Below are positions 16,645 to 64,000 of a DNA stretch of 64,000 bases, piece after piece; the first letter of the stretch is position 1, and every line of letters starts with the position of its first letter. Below the pieces are notes generated by a model. It ran no database searches, had not been told where the DNA came from, and saw only the letters and a program-made list of their open reading frames with translations. Source of the stretch: Pristiophorus japonicus. Taxonomy: Eukaryota. The translations under genes and the position numbers were made by a program. Where the stretch lies: contig NC_091995.1 of the NCBI RefSeq assembly GCF_044704955.1, positions 86,180,001 through 86,244,000 on the forward strand. Direction: 5' to 3'.

Positions 16645-17110
16645 GAAGACTTGGATTTATATATCATCTTTCTCGGCCTCAGGACCTCACAAAAGGCTTT
16701 ACAGCCAATGAAGTACTTTCTGAAGTGCAGTCACTGTTGTAATGTAATAAATGCTGTAGCCAATTTGTGCAAAGCAAGCTCCCACAAGCAGCAACGTGAT
16801 AATGACCAGATAATTTGTTTTGGTTATGTTGATTGAGGGATAAATAATAGTCAGAACACAAGGGATAACTCCCCTGCTCTTCTTCGAAATTGTGTTATGG
16901 GATCTTCTACATCCACCTGAGAGAGCAGACTGGGCCTCAGTTTCACGTCTCTTCCAAAAGACAGCACCTCTGACATTGCAACACAACTTCAGCACTGCAT
17001 TGGTATGTCAGCCTAGATTTTTGTGGTGCAAGTCTCTGGAGTGGAAGTTGTACCCACAACCTTCTGACTGACAGGCAAGAGTGCTACCCACTGAGCCATG
17101 GCTGACACTC
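16645..17110 (-). mobile_element. Same SINE family, minus strand; homologous copies at about 34280-34705 and 47795-48250
   Basis: Reverse complement of the 8125-8557 body. Confidence 0.65.
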
Positions 17111-17488
17111 AATGGCACACTTTTATTCCTGCTTACTCTTAATGGGGAATAAATAGTGTAAAGGAGACAATGAGTGCTGAGATTTCAGAGCACTGTTATC
17201 GCTGAACATCACATCAACCCTTTCTTAACTAAGCTGCACCTAGCTCTGGAGTTCAGCATGAAACTAGCGAACCTTGGATCTTGAATGACTTCGGAAGAAT
17301 TGATAGTCTGTTCCTCAATCGTTTTTATTATCTCAGTACAGGTAAAGATTAACCAAAGTTTGCAGAACTTGTTCCAGTTGGCTGTGGCTGGCAGCTGGTG
17401 TGAAAGTTCTTTCTGTTTGCACCAGTGAGGATAGGAGATATATGCATGTGACTTCTGACCAATGGCATCACCTATGTTGGTACAAGCC

Positions 17489-18446
17489 TGTGACTGCACA
17501 TCATCATCATCATAGGCAGGCCCTCGGAATCGAGGAAGACTTGCTTCCTCTCTTAACATGAGTTCTTTGGTGGCTGTACAGTCCAATACGAGATCCACAG
17601 TCTCTGTAACAGATGGGACAGATAGTCGTTGAGGGAAGGGGTGGGTGGGACTGGTTTGCCGCACGCTCTTTCCGCTGCCTGTGCTTGATTTCTGCATGCT
17701 CTCAGCGACAAGACTCGAGGTGCTCAGCGCCCTCCCGGATGCACTTCCTCCACTTAGGGCGATCTTGGGCCAGGGACTCCCAGGTGTCAGTGGCGTTGTT
17801 GCATTTTATCAGGGAGGCTTTGAGGGTGTCCTTGTAACCTCTCTGCTGCCCATCTTTGGCTTGTTTGTTGTGAAGCAGTTCCGAGTAGAGCGCTTGCTTT
17901 GAGAGTCTCGTGTCTGGCATGCGAACTATGTGGCCTGCCCAGCGGAGCTGATCAAGTATGGTCAGTGCTTCAATGATGGGGATGTTGTCCCAGATGAGGA
18001 CGCTAACGGTGCGTCTGTCCTCAAAGGGGATTTGTAGGATCTTGCGGAGACATCGTTGGTGGTATTTCTCCAGCGACTTGAGGTGTCTACTGTACATGGT
18101 CCATTGAGGCGTACGAAAGCATGGGCCTTACGCTAAACATCAGTCAGAGAAAAGGTCCTCCACTAGCCTGTCTTCGCCGCACAGCACTGCCTCCCAGTCA
18201 TCAAGATCCACGGCACAACCCTGGTCAACGTGGACCACTTCCCTTATCTCGGGAACCTCCTATCAACAAGAGCAAGCATTGACGACGAGATCCAACGGTG
18301 CCTCCAGTGCGCCAGTGCAGTCTTCGGCTGCCTGAGGAAAAGAGTGTTCGAAGACCAGGCCTCAAACCTGCCACCATGGTCTACAGGGCTGTAGTAATAC
18401 CCGCCATCCTGTGTGGCTCAGAGACATGGACCATGTGTCTGCACAT
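17489..18446 (-). mobile_element. RTE-clade LINE 3' fragment with 5' inversion
   Basis: (ATG)n tail at about 17500; sense part to 18104 ([22 protein letters not shown]); inverted part 18105-18436; about 13-bp TSD tgtgactgcacat/tgtgtctgcacat; empty site near 35085. Confidence 0.88.
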
Positions 18447-20085: not shown

Positions 20086-21853
20086 TTATATACAGGTGAG
20101 CAAGCACACATGCCACATGTGTGCAGCCCGATGACCTCCGACCTTGGTGCCCTCTGGTGTCTGGTGACCCCCCAAGCATTAATACATAACAACATCCCCT
20201 TTTAAAATCTTAATAACAGTCTTTTTACAAATTAAGATGGTCTGCGGCTTTCCTCTCACGAGTTGATCGTCTCAGTTCAACTTTGGCTCTGGGCAAGCAT
20301 TCTGAGTCCGTTGAGACTGAGGGCTGAGTAGCCGATCTGATGGGAGTGGTCATGACCACATCAGAGACTGAAGGTTCAGAGTCAGTAATGTCAGCAGAGT
20401 CCTCTGATGCGTGAACAATGTTTGGTTGGTCATTGACTGCATCTTCCTCACTTGGTTCCAATTCATCCATGTGCCGCAGTTTAACCTGGTCAAAGTGTTT
20501 CCTGCATGTTTGCCCATTCTTGAGCATGACAATAAACACTCTGTTACCCTCCTTGGCTGTAACAGTGCCGGCGATCCACTTTGGACCTTGACCATAGTTC
20601 AGTATATAAACCGGATCATTGACCGAGATGTCACGGGACATGGCAACACGATCATGACACCATTGCTGACTTTGACGTCTGTTTTCAACACGATCATTCA
20701 GATCTGGATGAACAAGAGAAAGCTTGGTCTTGAGATTTCCCTTCATCAGTAGTTCAGCAGGAGCAACCCCAGTAAGCGTATGATGTCTTGACCTGTAACT
20801 GAGCAATATACATGACAACCTTCTCTGCAGTGAACCCTGAGTTACACATTTCATACTTTGCTTGATCGTTTGAACGGCATACTCTGCTTGACCTTTAAAT
20901 GCAGGCTTGAATAGAACTGATCTCACATGTCTGATGCCATTGAGTTTCATGAACATCCGTGGCATTGTCTAAATCGACACTGTTGAGGCCCATGATTTCC
21001 CCCACAACGGCAACAGGGTGAAATCTGGTTCGAACCAGTTGCCGGGCTCTGAGCAATGGCAGCTCTGCCAGAAGACAACGCCATCTTGTTGACAGTACTT
21101 ATATCTGCCTCAAATTATCATCAGTCGTCATGCATGCCTGGGCAGTCGCGATGGCCTTTTTCAAATCCAGTGTCTCTGCAGCCAATAGTTTCCTGAGGAT
21201 CGCATCATGGTTGATGCCTATCATGACGACATCACGCAGCATGTCTTCCAGCATGTTCCCGAACTTACACGGCTCAGCAAGACGTCGCAGATCAACGACA
21301 AATCCCGACACGTCCTGGCCCATAGCACGAACATGCGTGTAGAAACGGTAGCATGATATGATGATCCCCGCTTTTGGCTTCAGATGGTTACCCACAAACG
21401 TACACAATTCCGCCGGACGTATAAGCGAGAGAAGATTCTTCATGAGGCCGTAAATTTTCGGACCACAAACGGTGAGGAGAACTGCCCTGAGCTTAACTAC
21501 GTAGGCCTCTGCCTCCATGCCATTGGCCACAAAATACTGATCCTGGCAGTCCACAAAATCCGCCAAATCCTCGCCCTCCACGAATCTCTCCAGGATTCCA
21601 ACGGTGCCCATTGTGCATGCGAAGGTTCTTAAATTACCTCGTCGTCAATTGTAATGACTCAAGAGTCTGGTTACTGTAAACTCACTCAGGTGCAACCTGA
21701 TCCCTCTTTATTGCAGCCCAAGAGTGCCAGCTTGACAAAGACACACAGCTTACATACAGTGAGCAAGCACATATGCCACATGCGTACAGCCCGCTGACCT
21801 CCGACTGCAGCTCCCTCTGGTGTTTGGTGACCCCCAAGCATTAATACATAACA
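20086..21853 (-). mobile_element. Ty3/Gypsy element 3, internally deleted (gag joined to integrase C-terminus)
   Basis: 5' LTR 21650-21853; truncated 3' LTR about 20086-20191 with PPT; gag ORF 21099..21611; integrase tail ORF 20225..20965. Confidence 0.88.
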
Positions 21854-21854
21854 G

Positions 21855-22300
21855 AGGGAAGGGGATGTAGGCAGGCAGAGGTGCTAAGGTAGAGTGGGGG
21901 ATACATTGAAGATGGTGATTTTAAATGCGATGCGCTAGAGGACAGAGAGCCAGTGTAGGTCAGCGCGAAGATGGATGATAGGTGAAAAGAACTTGATGTG
22001 AGACAGGATGAATTTTAGACAAGTGGATTTTGGGGAGGGTGGAGTTCAATGAGGAGAGTAATCGAGAAATTGAGTTCCAAGGTGATGGATGTGTTGGGAA
22101 GGGTTTTGACGGTGTTGTGAATGAACTAAAGGCTGAGGCAGGTGATGCTGCGGAGGTGGTGATGGATACAGAGGGCTTTGAAGCCGAACTCTTGATTGGA
22201 CAGATACTGTGGGTGCGCACAGTCCGGTTCAGCCTGAGTAAGCAGCAAGGAGGTGGATTGACTCGAGACGGCAAGGGTGCAAATTTGATGGTGCAGCCTG
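21855..22300 (-). mobile_element. L2-like LINE fragment; duplicate at about 51780-52230
   Basis: Degenerate RT C-terminal sequence adjoining the Gypsy-3 5' LTR. Confidence 0.5.
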
Positions 22301-22454
22301 AAAACAATGGCAAGGGTCTCCGTGTTGTGGCTTTATCTTACCCTCCAAGACTATCTTGGAGTAATAGATGAATTTGGCTCTGGAGAAGGAGGTATGGGAA
22401 TTCCAGACAAGGTTGAGCCACTTCTGACAGTAATGACAAGACCCTGTTGTGCAC

Positions 22455-22710
22455 CTGATATACCCCAGCCTAATTATAACTCTTTGATATACCTCACCCC
22501 TGTATATCTCTTGATATACCCCACACCCCTAACTGTAACACTCTGATATACCCCACACCCCTCACTGCAACACTATGATATACCCCACACCCCTCACTGT
22601 AACACTCTGATATACCCCACACTCCACACTGTAACACTCTTATATACCCCATACCCCACACTGTAACACTCTGATATACCCCACACCCCTCACTGTAACA
22701 CGATGATATA
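22455..22710. repeat. Minisatellite, about 32-bp unit CTGTAACACTCTGATATACCCCACACCCCTCA; duplicate at about 52380-52605
   Basis: Direct tandem periodicity. Confidence 0.9.
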
Positions 22711-22769
22711 TTGCACCATTTGTCCAGCAGTTTCTGAAATACCATATTCACTGCTTTCAAATCGCATTC

Positions 22770-23285
22770 AATGATATACCGCGCCCCATATTATCTGATA
22801 TACCACACTCCATATTATCTGATATACCACACCCCATATTATCTGATGACCGCACCCTATGTTATCTGATATACCACATCCTTTATTTTCAGATGTACCG
22901 CACCCCATATTACCTGATATACTACACCTTATATTCTGATATACCACACCCCATATTATCTGATATACCACACCCCATATTATCTGATATACCGCACCCC
23001 ATATTATCTGATATACCACATCCCATATTATCTGATATACCGCACCCCATATTATCTGATATACCGCATCCTACAATATCTGATATACCATAACCCACAT
23101 TATATGATATACCGCACCATATATTATCTGATATACCACACCCCATATTATCTGATATACCGCACCATATATTATCTGATATACCACACCCAATATTCTC
23201 TGATACACCGCACCCCATATTATCTGACATACCGCACCCCATATAATCTGATATTCCGCACCCTATATTTTCTGATACACCACCC
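22770..23285. repeat. Minisatellite, 24-bp unit ATATTATCTGATATACCRCACCCC
   Basis: Direct periodicity; produces the spurious ISDNMGCG / YQIIWGVV repeat ORFs. Confidence 0.95.
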
Positions 23286-24093
23286 GCTTTCGACAACATT
23301 CCTCGACAGATTGGGAAAACGAGTGACCAACTGCAATTCTGTTAATTTACAATAATGCAAGAATCATCAGTGAACTGATCAGTCACAGAAAAGGCTTTAT
23401 TTATGAATGATTCACATGAGCTGCTGTTTCAATGAATAAAGAAAATACAGGAAACGCACAGGTCAGTCAGAAGAGAAAGGCAGGTTGTGTCAAACTCCTT
23501 GATCAGAACAGATGCAGCCAGGTTGGTAAAGCTTCCTCAAGGGACCTCTGCAGCCTAAATCCACAGGTACTGGTCCCTGTGCTGGATAATCGGACCGCTT
23601 TCCATTTCAGGCCCCGCATCCCAGTCCCAGGTCAGGTATACCACAGCTAGATGTTAAAGCTCCCTGTACTCAGCCCCAACCTCAGAATGGTGCTTCATGC
23701 TGCTGTAATGTGGCACTTTTTACTATTCCCCACACTGACCGTCCTTAGGCCTGTTCAAGGGAAAGTAACAATTGGTGCATCAGCGATAATTATATGCTTA
23801 CAGGCCCAAATGTCTAAGAACGGAATTAAGAGCTCTCAGACCTTTGTCACGTGGAAGTCTGCCAGTCCGCATTAAGGGCAGACCTTCACCCAATTAGTCG
23901 AGAGCAGATTTGAATCCAGAGCCCAGAGATGAAAGGTCAGCCTTTAAACCATTGCACCACCCAATTCCAACCCGCCAGGTTCAATTGCAGGTTCCACTTG
24001 AACGATCTTTGTTCCTCCAGACAGCTGACAGACCTGCGTCAAATTTCCGGCATTTTTCTGCTTTCTTCAGATTTACAGCATCCATGAGTGTTT

Positions 24094-24099
24094 TTTAAT
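24094..24099 (-). promoter_or_regulatory. Candidate poly(A) signal ATTAAA just after the copy B stop (same in copy C near 54156-54161)
   Basis: ATTAAA 6 nt downstream of TGA; an alternative AATAAA lies at 23396-23401. Confidence 0.4.
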
Positions 24100-24105
24100 G
24101 TTGTC

Positions 24106-24255
24106 TCAAGCACTGAACTTCAAGGAGATCATTTTGAAGTTTTCGCCCACACCCAGGTAGGTGATTTTGCCCAGTGCCAGTCTGTTGGGGAAAACTATCA
24201 CGTGACCGTTTGGGAGTTTGATCTCAAAGTTTTCTCCCTTGAAAGTAATTTGTAT
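24106..24255 (-). CDS. lgals2: Galectin copy B exon 4 (150 nt incl. TGA)
   Basis: tttatttccag|ATACAAATT...AGTGCTTGA; encodes [49 protein letters not shown]. Confidence 0.93.
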   Translation of the reverse strand: MQITFKGENFEIKLPNGHVIVFPNRLALGKITYLGVGENFKMISLKFSA

Positions 24256-27200
24256 CTGGAAATAAAGAAACCAAAAACAGAAATGAGAGAATACAGAGAG
24301 TTAGCATGCAGGTACAGCAAGCAATTAGGAAGGCAAACGGTACGTTGTCCTTTATTGCAAGGACATTGGAGTACAAGAGTAAGGAATATATTCAAAGCTG
24401 AGATAGATAGATTTCTGGACTCTAGAGGAATTAAGGGATATGGAAATCGGGCGGGTATGTTTAGTTGAGGTTTAAGATCAGCCATGATCTTATTTAATGG
24501 TGGAGCAGACTCGAGGGGTGGTATAGCTTACACCTGCTCCTAATTCTTAGGTTCTTATACATCAAGGCTGAGAAATCAGACTGGGCTTACTACCTACTTC
24601 TGTGACTGCACCAAAGAACCATATCCTTCAGCCTGCGGTAAGTCGATAGGGTGAATTCACATTGCAGCATGGCCAACAATTCTGTCAAACCAGCTGATTT
24701 TACCAGCTTGGAGGGCTTGTGTTGTTTCTCTCTATAGCCCAATGTAATTGGGTTGCCAACTTCTGGTTAGTTGTATTCCTGGAGGTTTAATCACATGATC
24801 CTTCTGCCCCCGCCCCCACACGCCTGCCATTGGTTGCCCGGCATGTCTAACCTCGCATCTCGTGTGACCAGATAGCAGCAGTCACTGTGACAGAGTTAGG
24901 AGCAGTGAATGAGCTAACAAACATGGCTGCATATGACACCGCTATTCCTGGCCACAATTGATATGATTGGGTAATTTCCCTGTCAATCACGGCAAGAGAC
25001 CGCAGTGCTGTAAGTAACTGGTGTAATGTATGTACCTGCGAATGTGCTCACAGGTTCACTGTGAGTGACTTAGCCAGTCACGTGATGTTCGCAGGACTCA
25101 ATAAAACCCCAGTCAATTGAGTTCAGGTTCTCTACGATGAGGCATGCATTTGTGAACCTGGTGGATGAACTAGTCGTGTTCAGTTTGATTTTTAAACCTT
25201 TGCTAATAAACCAGCTAGTACTTTACAGCAAATATGTAGCAGTGAATTCTTAAGCAAAGAAACCATGAAGCAAATACACTACAACTGGGGTTGATTTTAA
25301 GCACAGAATTCACTCACTGCACAGTGCTGGAGAAATCACCCTGCTTTTATCAGGAGACATTGCTGTAGTTTCGATCATAAGTTCTGCTTGCTGTAGTAAA
25401 CAGAGACTCTGTTTAAATAGACTGTAGGCTGTTTGCTGTCGTGTGCTATTTAGATAGACTCCTATGCTATAAAATAGACTGTTTGCTGCGAGTCCCGCCC
25501 CGCCTCCAACTCATTGGCTGACACAGTGACAACAGATACTCTGAACATTGATATTAGAATCAACAGCCTTCTTGTTTTGAAATACAGACAAATAACTGTG
25601 CCTCTTCAGCGATTTAAAGAACCAGGGAGATAGAATACCAGAGATGGAAAATGAGTGTTTTAACACAGTACAGTACACTACCCTCCTATTAGCTGTAATA
25701 TATACTGACAATTTTTTGATGTATGCCTGGCGCTACACCTTCAAACTGTGAGGTCAGAGTTGGTGGCGGGTAGGCGGGGGGTGGGAGGGGTGGTGGGGTG
25801 GTGGCGGGGATGTGTGGGGATGTTAGAAATCAGGGGTTCAAATTGTCTAAAACTAACACAAAGGATATTGTATTTAAATCGTTGTTTTGAACTGGAGCCA
25901 AAATGTCTCCTCAGAATCGTATTAGATGCTTAGAAATGCTAAACTTTTGGTACCCTGCTGAGATTCTGCACTATGACAGCTGTAATCTGTTGTTTTCAAG
26001 TTAAGACTTCAACTTTGTTTATGTATCTTCAAGACAATGTGTTAAACATTTGTTATGTCATAAAGGAGGTAACACTCTGAAGCGAGCAGTTTTCTGGTTT
26101 GGCCTCATGGCATCAAAGGCAGGATACGGACGAAAGAGATAAGATACGAATTTCAAACTGAAGAAACCCTGGGAAGTATAAACAAGACATGTTGCCAAAA
26201 TCGGAAGCCATCTTTAGGGCGGGTTCTTGAAACAAGAATCGAGACAAAGAATGAGAAGCCTTATTGAATAGCAAGTTTTTAGGAGAGCCTCTATAGGTCA
26301 AAAGATCTTGTCAATATCCCAGGTCAGGCCCACCCCATAAAAGAGAATAAAAATAACACTTGGAGAGGGGAGAGTGAAACAGAAGTTGAGCTGGTCGAAC
26401 ACTCTTCGAATGATCTCATGCTTTACCGAAAGAAGCTCTGGTCAAAGGGAAAGAGACTGCAAGCCAGAGAACTGCTCACATGTGTCAGCTGTTTGTCCGA
26501 ACGAATCGGTATTAACTATGTGCTACGGTCGTATGTTTTTGCTGTATAACTAATGTGTTAAATTCCATTTTAAACTCTGATTAAACACAATATATCCACC
26601 AGATTGGTTTACAGTCGATCCTGATTATTAAAGTGACCAACCAGAGATAGCCTGAAACTTGGCTATTTCCATTAGGTGGGAGATGATAAATGTGTTACAG
26701 TTTGCTCCTTTCATTATCAGCAAAGGGCAGCAAGGTTACCTCACTGAGCGATTTTCAGCCCAGCCCTGCCTTACCTTGACCTCCGCCCCGTGGCTGAAGG
26801 GAAAGTTGGAGTCTCTCTGCTCGCACTCCCAGCTGCCATGGCGCATGGAGTTGCAGACGATCACGGCTCCGTCACGCTCATCGTGGAAACGGGGGCTGAA
26901 GTGCATGGCGATGTGGTCCGCGCAGCTCCCAAGGTTCACCACAAAGCTGGGCCCGGAAAGAAAGCAGAGAATCAGTGTCTGCACCACGGATTTCAGTCAA
27001 CCTGGAAATGTGCCATGCCTTTCTGCCGGTGCGTGTCTGTGGCTCATTCACAGAAGAATAGTAAGCAAGGTTGGTACAGTGACAGACCCCATGCTATACG
27101 TCCCAGAATTATAGCAGAGAGTCGTAGAATCATAGAAATTTACGACACGGAAGGAGGCCATTTCAGCTCATCGTGTCCGCGCCGGCTGATAAACCCAGCC

Positions 27201-30200
27201 TCAACCCACTTTCCAGCTCTTGGTCCGTGGCCCTGTACGTTAATGCCGTTTCAAGTGCACATCCAAGTATTTTTTAAATGTGGTGAGGGTTTCTGCCTCT
27301 ACCACCCTTTCAGGCAGTGAGATCCAGACCCCCACCACACTCTGGGTGAACGAAATTCTCCTCGATTCCCCTCTAAACCTCCTACCAATTACTTTAAATC
27401 TATGCCCCTAGTTATTGACCTCTCTACTGTGGAAAATAAGTCCTTCCTATCCACTCTATCTAAGCCCCTCATAATTTTATACACCTCAATCATGTCTCCC
27501 CTCAGCCTCCTCTGGTCCCAAGAAAACAACCATCCTCATAGTTAAAATTCTCCAGTCCTGGCAACATCCATTTTTATTCTCAAGGTAAATGAAACAGTCC
27601 CTGTAATTATCATTAGTTCCTACATACTGTATTGTGAGGTACTCCTCACTAAAATGGTGGATTGGCCTTGGAGGGAGTGCAATGTAGGTTTACCAGAATG
27701 ATGCCCGGACTTCCAGGGTTAAGTAACGAGGAAAGACTGCACAAATTAGGGTTGTATTCCCGAGAAGTTGGAAGGATAAGGGGCGATCTGGTCAAACTTT
27801 TCATAGTATTATGAGGAACAGATGGGGAGAAACTATTTCAGCTGGTTGGGGATTTTAGGATAAGGGGGCATAGCGTAAAAATTAGAGCCAGACTTTTCAG
27901 GAGTGAAATTAGGAAAAACTTCCACACACAAAGGGTGGTATGAGTTTGGGAATTTCTTCCGCAAACGGCAATTGATGCTAGATCAATTGTTAATTTTAAA
28001 TCGGAGCTTGATAGCTTTTTGTTAACTAAAGGTATTAAGGGATGTAGGGCAAAGGTGGGTATATGTAGTTAGATCGCAGATCAGCCATGATCTCATTGAA
28101 TGGCGGAACAGGCTTGAGAGGATGAATATCCTCCTCCTGTTCTTATGTTCCGTTGATTCCAATATGAGGAAACTCAGGCGGGATCTACAACGGGCGAACG
28201 ATCTGATCCGTCAGGTTACCACCCATTGGCTAAGTGGAAAATGAACCCCGTTGAGCCTTAATACTGAAACGACTATTATCTTTGTTTACCCTCTCAGTGA
28301 AGAAACTTCTCCTCATCCGGCATTCGGTTAAGAAACGGAGGTGGGGGGAAAGAAAACGTTAATCTTACCTGGAACAATTATCTGCAATCCTCCCTTTAAT
28401 CTTCAGAGTGTCTCCGCGTGTCATATCCATGTTATGCACTTCAAACTGTTGTTTGATGTTGAAAAGAAAACAATATTAATATAATGCAATATTTTCTCTC
28501 TTATTTAAAAGAAACCTGTTGTGAGTATGCTCACAGCTTTGTCGAGCTGCTGCATTGTGAGTGGCTTAGCCAGTCACATGATGTTCACAAGACACCATAA
28601 AACCCCAGTCAGTTGGGTCTAGGTCATCTGCGATGAGGTATGCAGTTGTGAGCCTAGTGGATGAACTGGTAAGGTGTAGTTTGATTGTTAAACCTGTGTT
28701 AATAAACCAACTAGTTCTTAATAGCAATGTGTTGCTATGAATTCTTAAGCAAAGAACCCATGAAGCAAATACATTACAAAATCCTGAATGATATAAAACC
28801 CCACAGAATTTCACTTGTGAATAGGGATGCATTTGCACAACTATTTCCCCGAGTACACGGACGCGTATACACACACACATATCCTCGCAGGTGCACGTAT
28901 GCACACTCACGAGTGTATACAGACAAAACAACTGTCAAGATCATTACAAGCTCAAGAAGCTTGATCCCATCCTGGAGAAAGCAGCCCACTTGATCGGCAC
29001 CCATCCCTCCTTCAAGATTCACTCCCTCCCCCACCAGTGCACCATGTCTGAAACATGTACCATCCACAAGATGCATTGCAGCAACTTGCCAAGGCTTCTT
29101 CGACAGCACCTCCCAAACCCTTGACCTCTGCCGCCTAGAAGGACAGGGGCAGCAGACGCATGGGAACACCACTACCTGCAAGTTTCCCTTCAGATTATAC
29201 CCCATCCTGACTTGAAAATATATCGCCGTTCCTGCATCGTCGCTGGGTCAAAATCCAGGAACCCCCTCCCTAACAGCACTGTGGGAGCACCTTCACCACA
29301 CGGACTGCAGCGGTTCAAGTAGATGGCTCACCACCTCCTTCTCAAGGGTAATTAGGGTTGGGCAATAAATGATGGCCTTGCCAGCGACGCCCACACCCCA
29401 GGAAGGAATTTTAAAAAGTCACGAATATCCAAACGAAGTTCACAAAAAGGGACATAAAAGTTTGATTCTTCACACTCGATATTTAAGAGGGCTGATGGTG
29501 ACAGCCCTTCTTCCAGTATCTGAAGGCTTTTAAGTGGTAGCAATCTTTCCTCTGTGTCATGGGAGACGAATTGAACTTTAATTTCTGATACTAATAAATG
29601 GTAACGGAATGATGTATAGTATAATGGAATAATAACAATGTTATTAATGTCTTTAATGATGACTTTAACTTCTGCCACTAAAGGCTGATAAATGAATGAT
29701 TGCATGGTATGAAGGAATAATCACGATGTTTTAAATGTGTTTTACGCTGAATAAATCCAATAAAAATAAAATATTAATCACAATCTAGCCTCCAAACTTC
29801 TAATTTTGCCCTCTTGAGCATCCCTATTGCCTTCTACCTTTTTCTCCTCATTGAAGGCGCTCCTTAAAACCTACATCTTTGACATAGCTTTTGGTCACCT
29901 GCCCTAATATCGCCTTATGTAGCTTGTTGTCAAATTTTCGCTCTTGTGAAGCATCTTGGGATGTTTTACTACATTAAAGGCGCTGTATAAATGCAAATGG
30001 TTGTTGTGGGAAGGTTGTGGGTTGAAGTGCCACTCCAGAGGTAGGGCACAAAATCTAGCAATATGGTGGCGTTTGTAGTGAGGGAAGTTATCCAGCCCAG
30101 TACTCCGGGTGTGGGGTCACGGACGTATGAAGACAAAAAGGGCTGGAGACCCAGTGGATTCAGGACCCAACCTAAATTTCATTCCATAAATTTCACTCAA

Positions 30201-33200
30201 TATCATTTTCCCAGCGAGGCTCATTCAATTCCCAGTGCTTCACACTAGGTGACGCTGTCACTCACAAGTTAGCTGTCCCTGAACTAACTGGTGCCTATAT
30301 ATTGCAAGCTCTATCTCTTAAATGAAAAGGTGTGAAGCTCTTGGGAATCGTATGTTGTCTGTTCAGCTCGGCCCCTTGCTGGGCACACAGAATGTAAATC
30401 ATTCGAGCATCAGAGTGTAACCATCGGCTCCCCAAGGATTCATTGATGGGCATTATCTGGACATTGTGTTTTAATATTTCCCACTGCAGAAAAAGCTGGC
30501 AGCCTGTTGCGGGAGGGGCCCAGGTATTTTTCCATGTTGTACACGAAATTTACATCTGATCAGTGTAAAGTGGTCAGTGATAAAGCCATTACCTGGATGA
30601 GATAACTCCGAGAGGCGAGAAACCAGAACAAAAGAAAACCATTAAGCCCAGTCCGGTTGGAAGCGAAAACCCATCCCCAGCCATCACTGGAATACACATG
30701 GGCCACTCAGACAGAAGCTTCGACACAAGGAAAAACTTTATTTGGCCAGAAGAAGCAAACAGACTTTAGATATAAAAGTTGGCCGTGAGGCCATCTCTCC
30801 GTCTCTTTTGCTCTCGCTTGCTTCACCTCTACAAGGACCGAGCACGCCATCTGGGACAGAGAGAAGAAACCATCAACAAGCAACTAGAGTCTTACTATTC
30901 AACTGTGAAACATAGAAACATAGAAAATAGGTGCAGGAGTAGGCCAGCTAATCTTGAGACTGGGACTTGGATACCATAGACAGTACGGAACCAGAAGAGA
31001 CACGTTTTCACCAGGAGAAGCAGCAAGTAAGCCAACGAATCGGTGAACATCATCCCTGCCCACGCATCTTTAAGATCACAGTCACTGTGTGAGGAGGTGT
31101 CGTGTGATCTCCCAACCAAGCCGTAAGAAGGGTTTTAGTGGGGAGGTTTTGCTACAAGGACCATAGGGGTGTGCCCAGCCGGTCGGTACAGATTCGGCGG
31201 TACACTGTGGATCCGCGCAGAGAGTTTAGATGTTGGGTACTTCGCGATAGGAGCATTTAGACATGCCAGGGTATTGGACCGAACTGCATCGTCACTGTAT
31301 TTACTTGTAGTTTTGCTGTGTTGAGGTAGCTTTAATAAAGCATTGACGGTTGAGACCGAGGTATTTGTCCGTGACTCATTTATCTGTTCAGTATAGCAAT
31401 CACTCCCAGGTCTAGAACTAGTGTAACGTGGGGGTGCGTCGAACACCTAAGGGAAACTACTTTCAAGAGTGCAAACAACTATGGTATGAAAGCAACTTCC
31501 CATTATCCGTAATTAACATTCTAACGCCCCGAATTTGGTGAAAGCTAAGTTCTGCCCAAAGGACAGCTGAGATCCTGATGGTACTTTGGACAGAAGTTTC
31601 ATGAAAGTTCTGGAAAGACTGCCCGGCGGCAGAAAAAGAGACTTGCCCCCTGAATCTGGGCAGCAGCGGGCGGGAGCTCCCATTCTCGGCGGCAAATGCA
31701 ATCCTCGGCAAAGTACCGCCGAGGATTGAGTTGGGCCCAAGGAGGGGGGAACAGATAAAATTAAAGATTTCAAAACATTAAACGTTAGAAAACCTTCAGG
31801 GGACTCCATCCACCTGAATCGCTGCAAAAAAAAATAAAGTAAAGAAGTATATTAACCTTTTTTTGCAGGTCTTCTTCCGTACCGTTGAGGTTAGACCTGC
31901 CTCCACACGGTTGTCTTTTCCCCTGCTGGAGCGAAGGACCGCCCGGACCAAACTGGCAGCTCGGTGGGCGGGAGGACACTTACGTGCACTACATGCCAGC
32001 AGAAGTCAGCGGGCAGTCCCCAGTGGCCTTCCCTTCCCGTCAGCGGGAGGCCTCCACCAAACTCGCTCAGACGGGAGACCGCCCAGAAAACGCGGCAGCA
32101 ACGGATTGTAAGTCCACCAATTTCAGCCTAATCCCACCTTCCAGCACTAGGTGCGTAACCCTGCAGGTCATGGCTTTAAGTGCATATCCAAGTACTTTTT
32201 AGATGTGGACCCCAACCTCTGTCGTTGAGTACGCAGATGATGCCTCTGTCTGCACACATTCTGAGGCTGAACTCCAGGATATAGTCGACGTATTTACTGA
32301 AGCATACGAAAGCATGGGCCTTACGCTAAACATCCGTCAGACAAAGTTACTCCACCAGCCTGTCCTCGCCGCACAGCACTGCCTCCAAATCATCAAGACC
32401 CACGGCGCGGCCCTCGACAACGTGGACCATTTCCCATACCTCAGGAGCCTCTTATCAACAAAAGCAAACATTGATGCGATGATGCAACACCGCCTCCAGT
32501 GCAGTCTTCGGCCGCCTGAGGGAAAGAGTATTCGAAGACCAGGCACTGAAATCTACCACCAAGCTCATGGTCTACAGGGCTGTAGTAATACCCGCCCTCC
32601 TCTATGGCTCAGAGTAATGGACGATGTACAGAAGACACCTCACCAACGATGTCTCCGCAAGATCCTACAAATCCCCTGGGAGGACAGGTGCACCAACATC
32701 AGTGGTCTCGTCCAGGCTACCATTGAAGCATTGACAACACTCGATCAGCTTCGCTGGCAGGCCACATAATTCACATGCCAGGCATGAGACTTCCAAAGCA
32801 AGTGCTCTATGCGGAGCTCTTTCACGGCAAACGAGCCAAAGATGGGCAGCAAAAACGTTACAAGGACACCCTCAAAACCTCCCTGATCAAGTGCAACATC
32901 CCCACTGACACCCTGGAGTCCCTGGCCAAAGACCGCCCTAAGTAGAGAAAGTGGATCCGGGAGGGTGCTGAGCACTTCGAGTCTCAACGCCGAGAGCGTG
33001 CAGAAATCAAGCGCAGGCAGCGGAAAGAGCGCACGGCAAACCAGTCCCACCTGCCCCTTCCCTCAACGACTATCTGTCCCACCTGTGACAGAGTCTGTGG
33101 CTCTTGTATTGGACTGTTCAGCCACCAAAGAACTCAATTCAGGAGTGGAAGCACATCTTCCTCGATTCCGAGGGACTGCCTATGATGATAATGATGAGTT

Positions 33201-33827
33201 GTGATGAGAGTTTCTACCTCTACCAACCTTTCAGGCAGTGAGTACCAGACTCCCACGAATCTCTGGGTGAAAATTTTTTTCCTCCTCTCCCTCTAATCCT
33301 TCTACCACTTACTTTAAATCTATGTCACCTGGTTATTGACCCCTCTGCAAAGGGAAATAAGTCCTTCCTATCCACTCTATCTACGTCCATCATAATATTA
33401 TGCAGCTCAATAAGATCTCCCCTCAGCCTCCTCTGTTTCAGCAAAAACAACCCCAGCCAATCCAATCTTTCCTCATTGCGAAAATTCTACAGTCCAGGAA
33501 ACATCCTTGTAAATCTCTGTACCCTCTCTAGTGCAATCATATCTTTCCTGCAGTGTGGTCAGCAGAACTGCATGCAGTACTCAAGCTGTGGACTAACTAT
33601 TGTTGTATACAGTTCAAGCATAACCTCCCTGCTGTTGTATTCTATGCCTCGGCTAATAAAGGAAAGCATCCCGAATGCCTTGTTAACTACCTTATCGACC
33701 TGCCCTGCTACCTTTAAGGATCTGTGAACATACACTCCGAGGTCCCTCTGTTCCTCACACCTCTCATAATTACAAAGACAAAATGCCAACCTCCCCGAAA
33801 GTTTCACTGTATTTTACTCGCCGTCAT
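24106..33827 (-). CDS. lgals2: Prototype galectin (galectin-2/-1-like), copy B, 4 coding exons: 33822-33827, 28369-28445, 26775-26946, 24106-24255; 134 aa
   Basis: Manual splice gives [134 protein letters not shown]. Galectin motifs present (FVVNLG, HFxPRF, IVCNS, WxxEQR, FPNRL). Intron phases 0/2/0 as in vertebrate LGALS1/2. The EVxNMDMxxGxTLKI N-terminus is LGALS2-like. The exon-1 donor is GC. The symbol means lgals2-like; orthology is untested. Confidence 0.85.
25022..25283 (+). mobile_element. Short solo LTR family member in galectin intron 3; duplicate at 55083-55344
   Basis: TSD ACTGG; same family as 7220 and 8901. Confidence 0.8.
26775..26946 (-). CDS. lgals2: Galectin copy B exon 3 (172 nt, carbohydrate-recognition exon)
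   Basis: cccag|CTTTGTGGTGAAC...GAGGTCAAG|gtaagg; lies inside ORF 26736..26987; encodes FVVNLG...HFSPRF...IVCNS...WECEQR. Confidence 0.95.
27120..28150. mobile_element. Two head-to-head CR1 3' fragments in galectin intron 2 (minus about 27120-27570, plus about 27650-28150); duplicate at about 57130-58190
   Basis: tagaatcatagaa tail and [14 protein letters not shown]...RRLRGD (ORF 57413..57598); plus-strand copy ends ttcttatgttc. Confidence 0.75.
28369..28445 (-). CDS. lgals2: Galectin copy B exon 2 (77 nt)
   Basis: ttttcttttcaacatcaaacaacag|TTTGAAGTG...TGTTCCAG|gtaaga; encodes [25 protein letters not shown]. Confidence 0.9.
28517..28778 (+). mobile_element. Short solo LTR family member about 70 bp from the exon 2 acceptor; duplicate at 58557-58818
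   Basis: Homology to 7220-7517; ends CATTACA. Confidence 0.75.
28928..29415 (+). mobile_element. CR1-group LINE 3' end; duplicate at about 58972-59460
   Basis: LKKLDxIxxKAAxLIG...[12 protein letters not shown] motif; gggcaataaatg tail. Confidence 0.7.
30416..31465 (+). mobile_element. Solo LTR (about 1.05 kb, 4-bp TSD; ERV- or Gypsy-derived) in galectin B intron 1
   Basis: TGTAAC...TTTCA ends; TSD AGAG; TATAAAAG near 30771 and AATAAA near 31334; empty site catcagagtgcc at about 4375 in copy A. Confidence 0.8.
31520..32110. mobile_element. GC/CpG-rich non-coding interspersed element, possibly a non-autonomous DNA transposon remnant; duplicate at about 61580-62180
   Basis: Abrupt CpG-rich block whose start is shared with 4437-4510; no terminal inverted repeats confirmed. 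Confidence 0.35.
32201..33197 (+). mobile_element. RTE-clade LINE 3' fragment inserted in CR1
   Basis: [27 protein letters not shown]; (ATG)n tail. Confidence 0.88.
33200..33765 (-). mobile_element. CR1 3' fragment (copy B intron 1), interrupted by an RTE; its 3' end continues at about 32110-32200
   Basis: ORF 33559..33807; homologous to 11160-11735. Confidence 0.85.
33822..33827 (-). CDS. lgals2: Galectin copy B exon 1 (ATG ACG, Met-Thr)
   Basis: Minus strand cgcaaag ATG ACG|gcgagt. Homologous sites read ATG ATG|gtgagt (63906-63911) and ATG GCA|gtgagt (11789-11794). A 6-nt coding first exon matches LGALS2. Confidence 0.7.
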
Positions 33828-36714
33828 CTTTGCGTCTCTCTCGGGCACTCGAGTAGGTGACAAGTGTCGGGGAACTCCAGGAAAGTGACGGACTGTAACG
33901 GAGGGAAGAGCATACATACCAGCTAAAGGAGGTCACTGCTGTTAATCAGTGATCAGGATTTTGTAACAGTTTAAGTCCACTTGCAAATAACAGGTCAAAT
34001 AGGATGTGCAGCAGGCACGCGCTCAGTCCGTGCCGGAAGTGCGCCATACTCCATATTGGCAAGTTTGCCTCGTAGTCGTCCAGGGCGCCCACCTCAAAAG
34101 GGTGTTCGGCCCACTGCTGAAGCAAATCGGGAGGGCCTAAGGTCTGTTTCAGGCAACTTTGCCAAATTGGCCTGTGCCTTAGCACGTCATGCACCGTGTG
34201 TGCCACAGTCAGCTTTCCTGGCGCACAGCAGCCAAACCAGCGCTCCTTAAAGGAACTGCCATCCCAGAAAAAAAGGGAACGACTTGGATTTATATATCAT
34301 CTTTCACGGCCTCAGGACCTCCCAAAAGGCTTTACAGTCAATGAAGTACTTTTTGAAGTGTAGTCACTGTTGTAATATAGGAAATGCTGTTGCCAATTTG
34401 CGCACCGCAAGCTCCCACAAGCAGCAACGTGATAATGACCAGCTAATCTGTTTTAATTATGTTGATTGGGGATAAATACTGGTCAGGACAGGAGAGATAA
34501 CTCCCCTGCTCTTCTTCGAAATCATGTTATGGGATCTTTTACGTCCACATGAGAGGGCAGAATGTGCCATGGTTTAACATCTTATCCAAAAGACAGCACC
34601 TCTGACAGTGCAGCACTCCTTCAGCAATGCACTGGAGTGAGTTTTGAACCCACAACCTTCTGACTGAAAGGCAAGAGTGCTACTCACATAGCTGTGGCGG
34701 ACACTCAATGGCTCGCTTTTATCCCTCCTTACTCTTAATGCGGAATGAATGGTGTAAAGGAGACAATGAATCTGCTGAGATTTCAGAGCACTGGTATCAC
34801 TGAACTTCCATCAACCCTTTCTTAACTAAGCTGCAACTAGCCTAGGATTTCAGCATGACACGAGCGAACCTTGGCCCTTGAATGACGTAGGAAGAATTGA
34901 TAGTCTGTTCTCCAATCGTTTTCATCATCTCAGTACAGATAAGATTAACCGAAGTTTGCAGAACTAGTTCCACCTGGCACTGGCTGACAGCTGGTGCCAA
35001 AGTCCTTTCTGTTTGCCCCAGTGAGGATGGGAGATATTTGCATGTGGTTTCCGATCAATGACAACACCTATGTTGGTACAAGCCTGTGATTGCACATACA
35101 AAGGATATCAAAGGGTGGATGCAAGCAAAAGCTCTGCATGCACAGAATTAGAAAAGGAGAAGGAAATACACTCGTGTGGTGGAAAAGGTATATTTTTATT
35201 GAGCGCAATTTACCCATCACCCCCTGTGCTCACTGACCTGCATTGGCTTCCGGTTACGCAACGCCTCGATTTTAAATGCCTCCATGGCCACGCCCCTCCC
35301 TATCTCTGTAATCTCCTCCAGCCCCACCACCACCCGCCCCCCCCGAGACATCTGTGCTCCTCTAATTCTGTGCTCTTGAGAATCCCTGATTATAATCACT
35401 CAACCATTGGCGGTCGTATATTCTGTTGCCTAGGCCCCAAGCTCTGGAACTCCCTGCCTAAGCCTCTCCGCCTCTCTACCTCTTTCCTCCTTCAAGACTC
35501 TCTTTAAAACATACTTTGTTGACCAGGTTTTTGGTCACCTGCGCTAATTTCTACTTATGCAGTTCAGTGTCAAATTGTTTCATCTCATAATAGTCCTGTG
35601 AAGCGCCATGGGACGTTTCACTATGTCAAAGGCGCTATATAAAAACAAATAGTGGTGTTATTGTGGCGTGCTGTTTACATTACAACAGTGACATCACTTC
35701 AAAAAGTGCTTCATTGGCTGTTAAAGCCTTGGGGTGCCCTGAGGTCATGAGTAGCCTTTTTTTTTGCACTCGCGTTTTGAATGTCTCTCTGCACCTGCCC
35801 GCCCTGGACTCCGCCCATACGCCTACGCATTCGCACCACCGCCCCCTGAGGTGGATATGGGGCAGTAATTGGACTGGGGCGGTCAGGAACATCCTGGGTG
35901 TGTCAGGAACTTGGTCTGGGGGATGGGGCAGGAACTTGGGCGGGGAGGAGGGAGCTCTATCCTGTCTGGAGTCGACAGTCAGAATGGCTCGAATTACACT
36001 TTGCAAAGTCACTGAGAACTTAGGCTGGGCAGTTCTAATTATACATTCCAGGGAAACTGCTGGGTGTGTCTTATCCTCCAAGGGGATTAATCAGCAACAG
36101 GTCATGCGATCACGGAAAGCCAATCAGACAGAGCATTTTGCTCGTGCACATAAGTGTATCCTTTTCTTTAAAACATTTTTATGGGTACTGAGCAATAGCT
36201 GTACCTTTATCAATGCCCTGACTAGGGTCAGGTAATTCAGCACACACCAGAGATTGAACCTAGGTCCTTTTTGGTCGATGAGAGAGTGACTTTACCTCTG
36301 AATCATCTGAGTGGCTCATTCAGATGTGAGTCATTCGCATATTTGACATTAGGCTGAAACTCGATCCCCGTTGTCACGTGTATTCTAACTCACAGCAAGT
36401 CCTGCTCATCCATTGCCCCTGCGCTCACCGACCTACATTGGCTCCCGGTCAGGCAACACCTCAATTTTAAAATTCTCCTCCTTGTGTTCAAATCCCTCCA
36501 GGGCCTCGCCCCCTCTCTCCTCCAGCCCACAACCCCCCGAGATCTCTGCGCTCCACCAATTTTAGCCTCTTGAACATCCCTGATTATAATGGCTCAACCA
36601 TTGGTGGCTATGCCTTCAGCTAGCTAGGCCCTAAGCTCTGGAATTCCCTCCGTAAACCTCTTCACCTCTCGACCTTTATCTTTTTTATTCAGCATTTTGC
36701 CAGCTCCATATGTG

Positions 36715-54167: not shown

Positions 54168-54317
54168 TCAAGCATTGAACTTCAAGGAGATCGTTTTGAA
54201 GTTTTTGCCCACACCCAGGTAGGTGATTTTGCCCAGTGCCAGTCTGTTGGGAAAAACTATCACGTGACCGTTTGGGAGTGTGATCTCAAAGTTTTCTTCC
54301 TTGAAAGTAATTTGTAT
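54168..54317 (-). CDS. lgals2: Galectin copy C exon 4 (150 nt incl. TGA)
   Basis: C-terminal part of ORF 54168..54548 after the ttccag acceptor: [49 protein letters not shown]. Confidence 0.93.
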   Translation of the reverse strand: MQITFKEENFEITLPNGHVIVFPNRLALGKITYLGVGKNFKTISLKFNA

Positions 54318-57300
54318 CTGGAAATAAAGAAACCAATAAACAGAAATGAGAGAATACAGAGAGTTAGCATGCAGGTACAGCAAGCAATTAGGAAGGCAAA
54401 TGGTACGTTGTCCTTTATTGCAAGGACATTGGAGTACAAGAGTAAGGAATATATTCAAAGCTGAGATAGATAGATTTCTGGACTCTAGAGGAATTAAGGG
54501 ATATGGAATTTGGGCGGGTATGTTTAGTTGAGGTTTAAGATCAGCCATGATCTTATTTAATGGTGGAGCAGACTCGAGTGGTGGTATGGCTTACTCCTGC
54601 TCCTAATTCTTAAGTTCTTATACATCAAGGCTGAGAAATCAGACTGGGCTTACTAGCTACTTCTGTGACTGCACCAAAGAACCATATCCTTCAGCCTGCG
54701 GTAAGTCGATAGGGTGAATTCACATTGCAGCATGGCCAACAATTCTGTCAAACCAGCTGATTTTACCAACTTGGGGGGCTTGTGTTGTTTCTCTTTATAG
54801 CCCAATGTAATTGGGTTGCCAACTTCTGGTTAGTTGTATTCCTGGAGGTTTAATCACATGATCCTTCTGCCCCCGCCCCCACACGCCTGCCATTGGTTGC
54901 CCGGCATGTCTAACCTCGCGGCTCGTGTGACTATATAGCAGTAGTCACTGTGACAGTTAGGAGCAGTGAGTGAGCTAACAAACATGGCTGCATATGACAC
55001 CGCTATTCCTGGCCACAATGGATATGATTGGGTAATTTCCCTGTCAATCACGGCTAGAGACCGCAGTGCTGTAAGTGATTGGTGTAATGTATGTACCTGC
55101 GAATGTGCTCACAGGTTCACTGTGAGTGACTTAGCCAGTCACGTGATGTTCGCAGGACTCAATAAAACCCCAGTCAATTGAGTTCAGGTTCTCTACGATG
55201 AGGCGTACAGTTGTGAACCTGGTGGATGAACTAGTCGTGTTCAGTTTGATTTTTAAACCTTCGCTAATAAACCAGCTAGTACTTTACAGCAAATATGTAG
55301 CAGTGAATTCTTAAGCAAAGAAACCATGAAGCAAATACACTACAACTGGGATTGATTTTAAGCACAGAATTCACTCACTGCATAGTGCTGGAGAAATCAC
55401 CCTGCTTTTATCAGGAGACATTGCTGTAGTTTCGACCATGAGTTCTGCTTGCTGTAGTAAACAGAGACTCTGTTTAAATAGACTGTAGGCTGTTTGCTGT
55501 AGTGTGCTGTTTAGATAGACTCCTATGCTATAAAATAGACTGTTTGCTGCGAGTCCCGCCCCGCCTCCAACTCATTGGCTGACACAGTGACAACAGATAC
55601 TCTGAACATTGATATTAGAATCAACAGTCTTCTTGTTTTGAAATACAGACAAATAACTGTGACTCTTCAGCAAGTTAAAGAACCAGGGAGATAGAATACC
55701 AGAGATGGAAAATGAGTGTTTTAACACAGTACAGTACACTACCCTCCTATTAGCTGTAATATATTTTTTGATGTATGCCTGGCGCTACTTCTTCAAACTG
55801 TGAGGTCAGACTTGGAGGGGTTGGGGGTGTTAGAAATCAGGGGTTCAAATTGTCTAAAACTAACACAAAGGATATTGTATTTAAATCGTTGTTTTGAACT
55901 GGAGCCAAAATGTCTCCTCAGAATGGTATTAGATGCTTAGAAATGCTAAAGTTTTGGTACCCTGCTGAGATTCTGCACTATGACAGCTGTAATCTGTTGT
56001 TTTCAAGCTAAGACTTCAACTTTATTTCTGTATCTTTAAGACAATGTGTTAAACATTTGTTATGTCATAAAGGAGGTAACACTCTGAAGCGAGCAGTTTT
56101 CTGGTTTGGCCTCATGGCATCAAAGGCAGGATACGGACGAAAGAGATAAGATACGAATTTCAAACTGAAGAAACCCTGGGAAGTATAAACAAGACATGTG
56201 GCCAAAATCGTAAGACATCTTTAGGGCGGGTTCTTGAAACAAGAATCGAGACAAAGAATTGGAAGCTTTATTGGATAGCAAGTTTTAAGGGGAGCCTCTA
56301 TAGGTCAAAAGATCTTATCAATATCCCAGGTCAGGTCCACCCCATAAAAGAGAATAAAAATAACACTTGGAGAGGGGAGAGTGAAACAGAAGTTGAGCTG
56401 GTCGAACACTCTTCGAGTGATCTCATGCTTTACCAAAGGAAGCTCTGGACAAAGGGAAAGAGACTGCAAGCCAAGAACTGCTCACGTGTGTCAGCTGTTT
56501 GTCCGATCGAATCGGTATTAACTATGTGCTACGGTCGTATGTTTTTGCTGTATAACTAATGTGTTAAATTCCGTTTTAAACTCTGATTAAACACAATATA
56601 TCCACCAGATTGGTTTACAGTCGATCCTGATTATGAAAGTGACCAACCAGAGATAGCCTGAAACTTGGCTATTTCCATTAGGTGGGAGATGATAAATGTG
56701 TTACAGTTTGCTCCTTTCATTATCAGCAAAGGGCAGCGAGGTTACCTCACTGAGCGATTTGCAGCCCAGCCCCGCCTTACCTTGACCTCCGCCCCGTGGC
56801 TGAAGGGGAAGTTGGAGTCTCTCTGCTCGCACTCCCAGCTGCCATGGCGCTTGGAGTTGCAGACGATCACGGCTCCGTCACGCTCATCGTGGAAACGGGG
56901 GCTGAAGTGCATGGCGATGTGGTCCGCGGAACTCCCCAGGTTCACCACAAAGCTGGGCCCAGAAAGAAAGCAGAGAATCAGTGTCTGCACCACGGGTTTC
57001 AGTCAACCTGGAAATGTGCCATGCCTTTCTGCACTGGTGCGTGTCTGTGGCTCATTCACAGAAGAACAAGAAGCAAGGTTGGTATCTGTGAGTACAGTGA
57101 CAGACCCCATGCTGTACCTCCCAGAATCATAGCATAGAGTCGTAGAATCATAGAAATTTATGACACAGCAGGAGGCCATTTCAGTTCATCGTGTCCGCGC
57201 CGGCTGATAAAAGAGCCACCCAGCCTAAACCCACTTTCCAGCTCTTGGTCCGTGGCCCTGTACGTTATACCGCTTCAAATGCACATCCAAGTATTTTTTA

Positions 57301-60300
57301 AATGTGGTGAGAGTTTCTGCCTCTACCACCCTTTCAGGCAGTGAGTTCCAGACCCCCACCACCCTCTGGGTGAACGAAATTCTCCTCGATTCCCCTCTAA
57401 ACCTCCTACAAATTACTTTAAATCTATGCCCCTAGTTATTGACCTCTCTACTGTGGAAAATAAGTCCTTCCTATCCACTCTATCTAAGCCCCTCATAATT
57501 TTATACATCTCAATCATGTCTCCCCTCAGCCTCCTCTGCTCCCAAGAAAACAACCTCAGTCCATCCTCATAGTTATAATTCTCCAGTCCTGGCAACATCC
57601 ATTTTTATTCTCAAGGTAAATGAAACAGTCCCTGTAATTATCATTAGTTCCTACATACTGTATTGTGAGGTACTCCTCACTAAAATGGTGGATTGGCCTT
57701 GGAGGGAGTGCAGCGTAGGTTAACCAAAATGATGCCCGGACTTCCAGGGTTAAGTAACGAGGAAAGACTGCACAAATTAGGGTTGTATTCCCGAGAAGTT
57801 GGAAGGATAAGGGGCGATCTGATCAAAGTTTTCATAGTATTATGAGGAAAAGATGGGGTAGATAGAGAGAAATTATTTCAGCAGGTTGAGGATTTTAAGA
57901 CTAGGGGGCATAATGTAACAATTAGAGCCAGACCTTTCAGGAGTGAAATTAGGAAAAACTTCTACACACAAAGGGTGGTATGAGTTTGGGAATCTCTTCC
58001 GCAAACGGCAATTGATGCGAGATCAATTGTTAATTTTAAATCGGAGCTTGATAGCTTTTTGTTAACTAAAGGTATTAAGGGATGTCGGGCAAAGGTGGGT
58101 ATATGGAGTTAGATCGCAGATCAGCCATGATCTCATTGAATGGCGGAACAGGCTTGAGAGGCTGAATATCCTCCTCCTGTTCCTATGTTCCGTTGATTCC
58201 AATATGAGGAAACTCAGGCGGGATCTACAACGGGCAAACGATCTGATCCGTCAGGTTACCACCCATTGGCTAAGTGGAAAATGAACCCCATTGAGCCTTA
58301 ATACTGAAATGACTATTTTCTTTGTTTACCCTCTCAGTGAAGAAATTTCTCCTCATCCGGCATTCGGTTAAGAAATGGAGGTGGGGGGAAAGAAAACGTT
58401 AATCTTACCTGGAACAATTATCTGCTATCCTCCCTTTAATCTTCAGTGTGTCTCCGCGCTTCATATCCATGTTATGCACTTCAAACTGTTGTTTGATGTT
58501 GAAAAGAAAACAATATTAATATAATGCAATATTTTCTCTCTTATTTAAAAGAAACCTGTTGTGAGTATGCTCACAGCTTTGTCGAGCTGCTGCATTGTGA
58601 GTGGCTTAGCCAGTCACATGATGTTCACAGGACACCATAAAACCCCAGTCAGTTGGGTCTAGGTCATCCGCGATGAGGTATGCAGCTGTGAGCCTAGTGG
58701 ATGAACTGGTAAGGTGTAGTTTGATTGTTAAACCTGTGTTAATAAACCAACTAGTTCTTAATAGCAATGTGTTGCTATGAATTCTTAAGCAAAGAACTCA
58801 TGAAGCAAATACATTACAAAATCCTGAATGAAATAAAACCCCACAGAATTTCACTTGTGAATAGGGATGGATTTGCACAACTATTTCCCCGGGTACACGG
58901 ACACGTATACACACACATATCCTTGTAGGTGCACGTATGCACACTCATTGTAGGTGCACGTATACATACAAAACAACTGTCAAGATCATTACAAGCTCAA
59001 GAAGCTTGATACCATCCTGGAGAAAGCAGCCCACTTGATCGGCACCCATCCCACCTTCAAGATTCACTCCCCCCACCAGTGCACCATGTCTGAAGCATGT
59101 ACCATCTACAAGATGCAATGCAGCAACTTGCCAAGGCTTCTTCGACAGCACCTCCCAAACCCCCGACCTCTACCGCCTAGAAGGACAGGGGCAGCAGACG
59201 CATGGGAACACCACTACCTGCAAGTTTCCCTTCAGATTATACCCCATCCTGACTTGAAAATATATCGCCGTTCCTTCATCGTCGCTGGGTCAAAATCCAG
59301 GAACTCCCTCCCTAACAGCACTGTGGGAGCACCTTCACCACACGGACTACAGCGGTTCAAGTAGGTGGCTCACCATCTCCTTCTCAAGGGTAATTAGGGT
59401 TGGGCAATAAATGCTGGCCTTGTCAGCGACGCCCACACCCCAGGAAGGAATTTTAAAAAGTCACGAATATCCAAACGAAGTTCACAAAAAGGGATATGAA
59501 AGTTTGATTCTTCACACTCGATATTTAAGAGGGCTGATGGTGACAGCCCTTCTTCCAGTATCTGAAGGCTTTTAAGTGGTAGCAATCTTTCCTCTGTGTC
59601 ATGGGAGACGAATTGAACTTTAATTTCTGATACTAATAAATGGTAACGGAATGATGTATAGTATAATGGAATAATAACAATGTTATTAATGTCTTTAATG
59701 ATGATGTTTTAAATGTGTTTTACGCTGAATAAATCCAATAAAAATAAAATATTAATCACAATCTAGCCTCCCAACTTCTAATTTTACCCTCTTGAGCATC
59801 CCTATTGCCCTCTAACTTTTTCTCCCATTGAAGACGCTCCTTACAACTTACCTCTTTGACATAGCTTTTGGTCACCTGCCCTAATATCTCCTTATGTGGC
59901 TCGTTGTCAAATTTTCGCTCTTGTGAAGCACCTTGGGATGTTTTACTACATTAAAGGCGCTGTATAAATGCAAATGGTTGTTGTGGGACGGTTGTGGGTT
60001 GAAGTCCCACTCCAGAGGTAGGGCACAAAATCTAGCAATATGGTGGCATTTGTAGTGAGGGAAGTTATCCAGCCCAGTACTCCGGATGTGGGGCCACGGA
60101 CATATGAAGACAAAAAGGGCTGGAGACCCCGTGGATTCAGGACCCAACCTAAATTTAATTCCATAAATTTCACTCAATATCATTTTCCCAGCGAGGCTCA
60201 TTCAATTCCCAGCGCTTCACACTAGGTGACACTGTCACTCACAAGTTAGCTGTCCCTGAACTTGCCTATATATTGCAAGCTCTATCTCTTAAATGAAGCT

Positions 60301-63911: not shown

Positions 63912-64000
63912 CTTTGCGTCTCTCTCGGGGACTCGAGTAGGTGACAAGTGTCAGGGAACTCCAGGAAAGTGACGGACTGTAACGGAAGGGAGAGCATACA

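Follow-up and report, generated by a model that had tools for sequence, protein, structure and literature searches.

Asn46 of galectin-1 hydrogen-bonds the 4-OH of galactose together with His44 and Arg48, according to PMC3396283 and PMC4422656, and the same sources support the view, taken in the preliminary description of the locus reported here, that this Asn is a conserved galactose-contacting residue. Position 46 can be critical, since galectin-1 N46D lacks glycan binding, as confirmed by lactose affinity chromatography in bioRxiv 10.1101/2024.01.03.574113. In PMC6294630, a galectin-13 engineered to His53/Arg57 has lactose in its crystal even though Arg occupies the place of the Asn, and the galectin-13 variants failed to bind lactose beads. 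Two further papers state that not all eight signature residues are essential (PMC5297725) and that sponge galectins vary in this heptapeptide, some having Asp or Gly at position 46 (PMC13084444). LGALS1 and LGALS2 are treated as one locus with a late split, with elfn2, gga1 and tmem184b as synteny markers of the lineage, in PMC10343441, so that on this account "galectin-2-like" is only a similarity label.

Tandem duplication followed by binding-site variation is seen in the conger eel congerins and in the primate placental cluster, and is seen again in the sawshark array described below. The congerins underwent accelerated evolution, which has no counterpart in the comparison of the two sawshark copies, and placental galectin-13 lost the equivalents of His44 and Arg48, both of which the sawshark copies keep.

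We analysed a window of 64,000 nucleotides from the Japanese sawshark, Pristiophorus japonicus (contig NC_091995.1, positions 86,180,001 to 86,244,000, forward strand). It holds two galectin copies, B and C, each with four exons and an open frame of 134 codons, of which the first exon contributes two, and the predicted first exon of a third copy, A, the remaining exons of which would lie left of the window. In window coordinates, the features are:

20951..33916, no strand assigned: duplicated block with copy B inside it; aligns piecewise to 50870-64000 (copy C), identity 90-97%
33822-33827, minus strand: copy B, predicted coding end of exon 1, Met-Thr, placed by homology to copies A and C and by the Met-Thr start of paralog P0007
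33820-33821, minus strand: copy B, putative exon-1 donor, non-canonical GC, placed by homology to A and C
28369..28445, minus strand: copy B, exon 2
26775..26946, minus strand: copy B, exon 3 (172 nt), encoding the sugar-binding strands; the split codon AG/C for Ser29 ends with the first base of this exon
24106..24255, minus strand: copy B, coding part of exon 4 and stop codon
63906..63911, minus strand: copy C, predicted coding end of exon 1, Met-Met, canonical GT donor
58409..58485, minus strand: copy C, exon 2
56781..56952, minus strand: copy C, exon 3
54168..54317, minus strand: copy C, coding part of exon 4 and stop codon
11789..11794, minus strand: copy A, predicted coding end of exon 1, Met-Ala, GT donor; same start as paralog P0008, to which copy A would correspond

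Exon 1 of A, B and C was located by homology among the three copies. The segment that all three share (1-558 scanned against 29762-30314) contains no exon-1 start, and the exon was found further upstream. Copies A and C have a GT donor here, whereas that of B is GC and stands in a weak context. Neither B nor C contains a stop or a frameshift, and the splice sites of C are canonical. Both had been called complete; this stands for C, and for B only if its weak GC donor is used. The database model of B (P0006) skips exon 1 and has an N-terminus of 92 residues pieced together from segments near 40311-39944 and 32754-32698, probably a mis-annotation, while that of C (P0003) begins in intron sequence, also without exon 1. 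Contigs of four runs over positions 23700-31500 are dominated by intronic repeats and, among the matches listed, offer neither a splice joint nor any information about the Ser codon discussed below.

The introns of B and C differ at 122 of 3883 positions (3.1%), plus many indels. High-copy repeats fill the introns of the window, and downstream of each copy lies a tandem array with units of about 22-24 bases (about 22500-23290 and 52380-53370), longer at C. More duplicated blocks, at about 96% identity (3061-8588 matching 38548-44055, and 12952-17714 matching 44086-48845), are present upstream of copy A and between B and C.

From exon 2 onward, B and C match P. japonicus proteins named galectin-2-like: P0006 is B (UniRef entry UPI00398E6A9F) and P0003 is C (UPI00398F05EA). 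Each has a single CRD in 134 residues and matches PF00337 (Galectin) in a single stretch (E=3e-30; 104.8 and 98.8 bits, cut-off 22.1). The AlphaFold model of copy C (pLDDT 93.6) predicts a beta-sandwich galectin fold with a TM of about 0.9 to galectin-1 and galectin-2, and its best VIA-align match is chicken galectin-2 2YMZ (Z 25.4, rmsd 0.8 over 130 residues). Given this E-value and a TM of 0.9, the galectin identity is no chance match. Shark and ray galectin-2-like orthologs are 52-67% identical to B and C and group with them in an 18-row elasmobranch group of moderate support (82/85). Judged by sequence, B and C belong with the prototype galectins, in the galectin-1/2 lineage of sharks. They resemble vertebrate galectin-1/-2 (LGALS1/2) in single CRD, four exons, two-codon first exon and fold, and keep six of the seven core residues together with Val59 and Asp54. 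They differ from them by Ser46, by Ser29 where other sharks have Arg/Lys, by Glu at the His52 position, and by belonging to at least five tandem-like paralogs in the sawshark.

Translation of the minus-strand exon 3 gives H-F-S-P-R instead of H-F-N-P-R in both copies, which bears out the original observation at this locus:

26889..26903, minus strand: copy B, H-F-S-P-R motif, Ser46 codon AGC at 26895-26897
56895..56909, minus strand: copy C, H-F-S-P-R motif, Ser46 codon AGC at 56901-56903

The interval first given for copy B, 26895..26915, thus marks a real motif but is offset by six bases, beginning at the Ser codon and omitting Pro-Arg. AGC is a single A>G transition away from the Asn codon AAC, and a base-calling error is unlikely, because the same codon is found in two copies with introns about 3% diverged. 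Aligned to galectin-1, the equivalents of His44, Arg48, Val59, Asn61, Trp68, Glu71 and Arg73 are intact and identical in B and C, as had been claimed, and so is that of Asp54. The His52 equivalent is Glu in both copies, as in the Xenopus galectin 3WUD.

We then place position 46 within the family. The principal set comprised 123 galectin-1/2-like domains from 122 proteins, drawn from database hits for galectin-1/2-like proteins plus one chimaera sequence; here position 46 is Asn in 113, Ser in 7 and Gln in 2, with one gap. A broader census took in 504 domains of 190 proteins; once 15 with gaps at core positions had been dropped, the remaining 489 gave Asn 374, Ser 36 and Asp 18, Ser being the commonest non-Asn residue; this census is enriched for repetitive multi-domain proteins, and its counts are not independent events. 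In the 206 domains with the six other core residues intact, Asn is found in 188, Asp in 9, Ser in 8 (two of them B and C) and Ile in 1. The textbook Asn46 is absent from B and C without being strictly family-defining, as Ser takes its place in 7/123 and 36/489 domains.

Five of the seven Ser46 domains are from birds, 5/53 bird galectin-2 cluster representatives carrying HFSPR. Within these clusters, Ser46 is found in 8/8 Falco records and in Herpetotheres, in 5/6 Columba/Patagioenas records and in 2/3 Alopecoenas/Caloenas records, where two records of Caloenas nicobarica differ (N/S), possibly a polymorphism. Both pelican galectin-2 records (2/2) have Ser46, and both also have Ser29. The bird and skate variants at this position are in records P0260, P0257, P0266, P0285, P0283 and P0296-P0310. 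His-x-Ser-Pro-Arg is also present in P0160 (Heptranchias galectin-4-like) and in the teleosts P0056 (Muraenolepis), P0054 (Clarias) and P0131 (Colossoma). Whether Ser is common here in galectins with normal binding had been named as decisive against altered specificity; the recurrence of Ser supplies half of that. The falcon, pigeon and pelican proteins share with B and C the identical HFSPRF and intact other core residues; they differ in their independent origin, in a shorter S4-S5 loop and in being annotated as ordinary galectin-2 rather than as members of a young array.

Structures exist for one further comparison, the nematode Tl-gal (4HL0/5GLT/8YZQ), the N-domain of which has Ser46 between His and Arg with the signature Asn, Trp, Glu and Arg present, as in B and C; 5GLT is titled "Tl-gal with LNT". 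Unlike B and C, the nematode galectins are two-domain proteins with Val rather than Pro after the Ser, and they keep Arg29, absent from B and C, which makes them an imperfect model. The N-domain of C. elegans LEC-1 reportedly binds galactosides more weakly.

Three further P. japonicus paralogs, P0004, P0007 and P0008, all have Asn46. A 28-row tree unites all five paralogs of the sawshark in a single clade (100/97) and pairs B with C as sisters (88/94); an earlier tree of 19 rows agreed on both groups, less firmly (86/94 and 84/68). In 14 other cartilaginous-fish orthologs, position 46 is Asn in 12, Gln in 2 (skates) and Ser in none; Gln46 occurs in the skates Rhinoraja, Leucoraja and Amblyraja. 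Asn46Ser is thus one recent A>G change in a species-level tandem expansion, found in two copies of one species as far as sampled, the squalomorph sampling besides the sawshark consisting of Heptranchias. The change had been proposed to predate the B/C duplication. This is the simplest account: the 250-base bin with exon 3, at 9/250 mismatches against 3.1% in introns, shows no closer match between the copies than the block does elsewhere, and the tree makes B and C sisters. Recent gene conversion was considered as a cause of the shared Ser but is not needed, there being no low-divergence tract at exon 3.

The exons of the array look mosaic. Exons 2 and 4 of B and C are nearest P0007 (for B, 2/26 and 5/49 differences), while exon 3 is nearest P0004 (7/57 differences versus 15/57); exon 3 is nearly the same in P0007 and P0008. 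This mosaicism suggests gene conversion or unequal crossing-over. P0004 has Asp at the nearly invariant Glu71, the sole case in 123 domains, and this is likely to be more damaging than Asn46Ser. Three binding-site designs are found in the one array: Ser29 with Ser46 in B and C, Asp71 in P0004, and an S4-S5 loop four residues shorter in P0007 and P0008.

A second change, missed by the preliminary description, lies at site-B position 29, which is Ser in B and C and Arg/Lys in the other 17/19 chondrichthyan galectin-2-like sequences. The split codons are:

26946 and 28369-28370, minus strand: copy B, Ser29
56952 and 58409-58410, minus strand: copy C, Ser29

Ser29 is absent from the three sister paralogs as well. 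Residue 29 corresponds to galectin-8N Arg45 and, matched through it, to galectin-3 Arg144. According to PMC2966122, basic binding is retained in galectin-3 R144S, but affinity is lost for galactosides that are 3'-sialylated, sulfated or GlcNAc-extended (polyLacNAc) and is gained for one that is GalNAc-extended. Ser29 itself is common, occurring in 55/316 Asn46 domains. The pair Ser29+Ser46 had looked unique (0/17 other Ser46 domains), an idea ruled out by pelican galectin-2, which has both.

Between the coding sequences of B and C, there are 7 synonymous changes over 81.5 sites and 8 non-synonymous changes over 314.5 (dN/dS 0.28, Fisher p=0.019). Fourteen codons differ, none at a signature residue. 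The ratio is low because pS is high (8.6%, above introns, p=0.015); pN, at 2.5%, is not below the intron divergence of 3.1% (p=0.74). Purifying constraint on the two copies is thus suggested, equivocally. This comparison of B with C gave no positive-selection signal and no non-synonymous excess.

Together, these results lead us to favour, with some confidence, the reading that B and C are young tandem duplicates sharing Asn46Ser and are ordinary beta-galactoside binders, if somewhat weaker or retuned ones. Asn46Ser is probably tolerated, with weaker or retuned binding as its utmost effect; still, Asn occupies the site in 113 of the 123 vertebrate galectin-1/2-like domains. Galactose would still stack on Trp68 and hydrogen-bond His44, Arg48, Asn61 and Glu71, while Ser46, a shorter and uncharged residue, would lose the contact that Asn makes with the galactose 4-OH or preserve it by way of water alone. 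Asp may harm through its added charge beside Arg48, where a neutral Ser could act through water. With Ser29, B and C would lack the basic side chain through which galectin-3 prefers glycans that are 3'-sialylated, sulfated or of the polylactosamine type. Both changes would most likely have drifted in under relaxed constraint, the array being redundant, with five or more copies that exchange exons. Searches of the literature outside most subscription journals turned up no paper on sawshark galectins or on sugar binding by a Ser46 vertebrate galectin, and nothing bearing on position 46 was found in PMC9402972, PMC3039406, PMC6272529, PMC2934707 or PMC5584048. The earlier proposal of altered or weakened specificity is plausible on this footing, given that galectin-1 N46D loses lactose binding in the study cited above, but its extension to a new, neofunctionalised subfamily is not supported: there are two copies about 3% apart in one species, Ser46 is found in 0/14 chondrichthyan orthologs and 0/3 sister paralogs, the same motif occurs in falcon, pigeon and pelican galectin-2, in teleosts and in another shark, and no positive-selection signal was obtained between B and C.

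The alternative that survives best, though we think it unlikely, is that B and C are redundant and in early decay, Ser46 and Ser29 together largely abolishing binding in copies that are weakly expressed or becoming pseudogenes. The GT>GC change at the exon-1 donor of B, in its weak context, would fit, as would database models of both copies lacking exon 1, a pN close to the intron divergence, the Glu71Asp of P0004 and the loss of binding reported for N46D. Against decay stand two frames free of stops and frameshifts, signature residues untouched by the B/C differences, a dN/dS of 0.28 (p=0.019), canonical splice sites in C, and the keeping of the same Ser across falcon genera.

We give slightly less credence to an adaptive origin, in which Ser46, Ser29 and Glu52 were selected because they conferred a novel glycan specificity while an array of defence lectins diversified. 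Three binding-site designs in one array speak for it, as do a position 29 that is basic in all chondrichthyan galectin-2-like sequences except B and C (17/19) and the fact that positions 29 and 46 and the S4-S5 loop are known specificity determinants. But a non-synonymous excess is absent between B and C, Ser29 and Ser46 are each a single-base step away and occur together in pelican galectin-2, N and S alternate among pigeons, and only two copies in one species are concerned. A little more doubtful is the specific form of this idea, that within an array of at least five exon-exchanging copies the Ser29+Ser46+Glu52 proteins were adaptively retuned, giving up 3'-sialyl, sulfo and polylactosamine ligands for GalNAc-capped or microbial glycans; if true, a shark would show a lectin radiation resembling that of the congerins, with convergence on the Ser46 of falcon and pelican galectin-2. 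Finally, it is very improbable that B and C are a single gene present as two haplotypes, or that the Ser codon is an assembly error, for although the two copies are highly identical over about 13 kb, their introns mismatch at 3.1% with many indels, 14 codons differ, and both carry the same Ser codon.

For tolerated variants in young duplicates, the reading we prefer, the significance is modest: databases already label these genes galectin-2-like, and Asn46Ser turns up repeatedly in other galectins. Sawshark B and C against their Asn sisters, together with the Ser/Asn pairs of falcon and pigeon galectin-2, form a natural test set for the need for Asn46, which would tell whether the loss seen in galectin-1 N46D reflects the added charge rather than the missing Asn. 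Should the array prove to have diversified adaptively, sharks would have their own equivalent of the congerins of fish mucus, a matter for glycobiologists and comparative immunologists alike.
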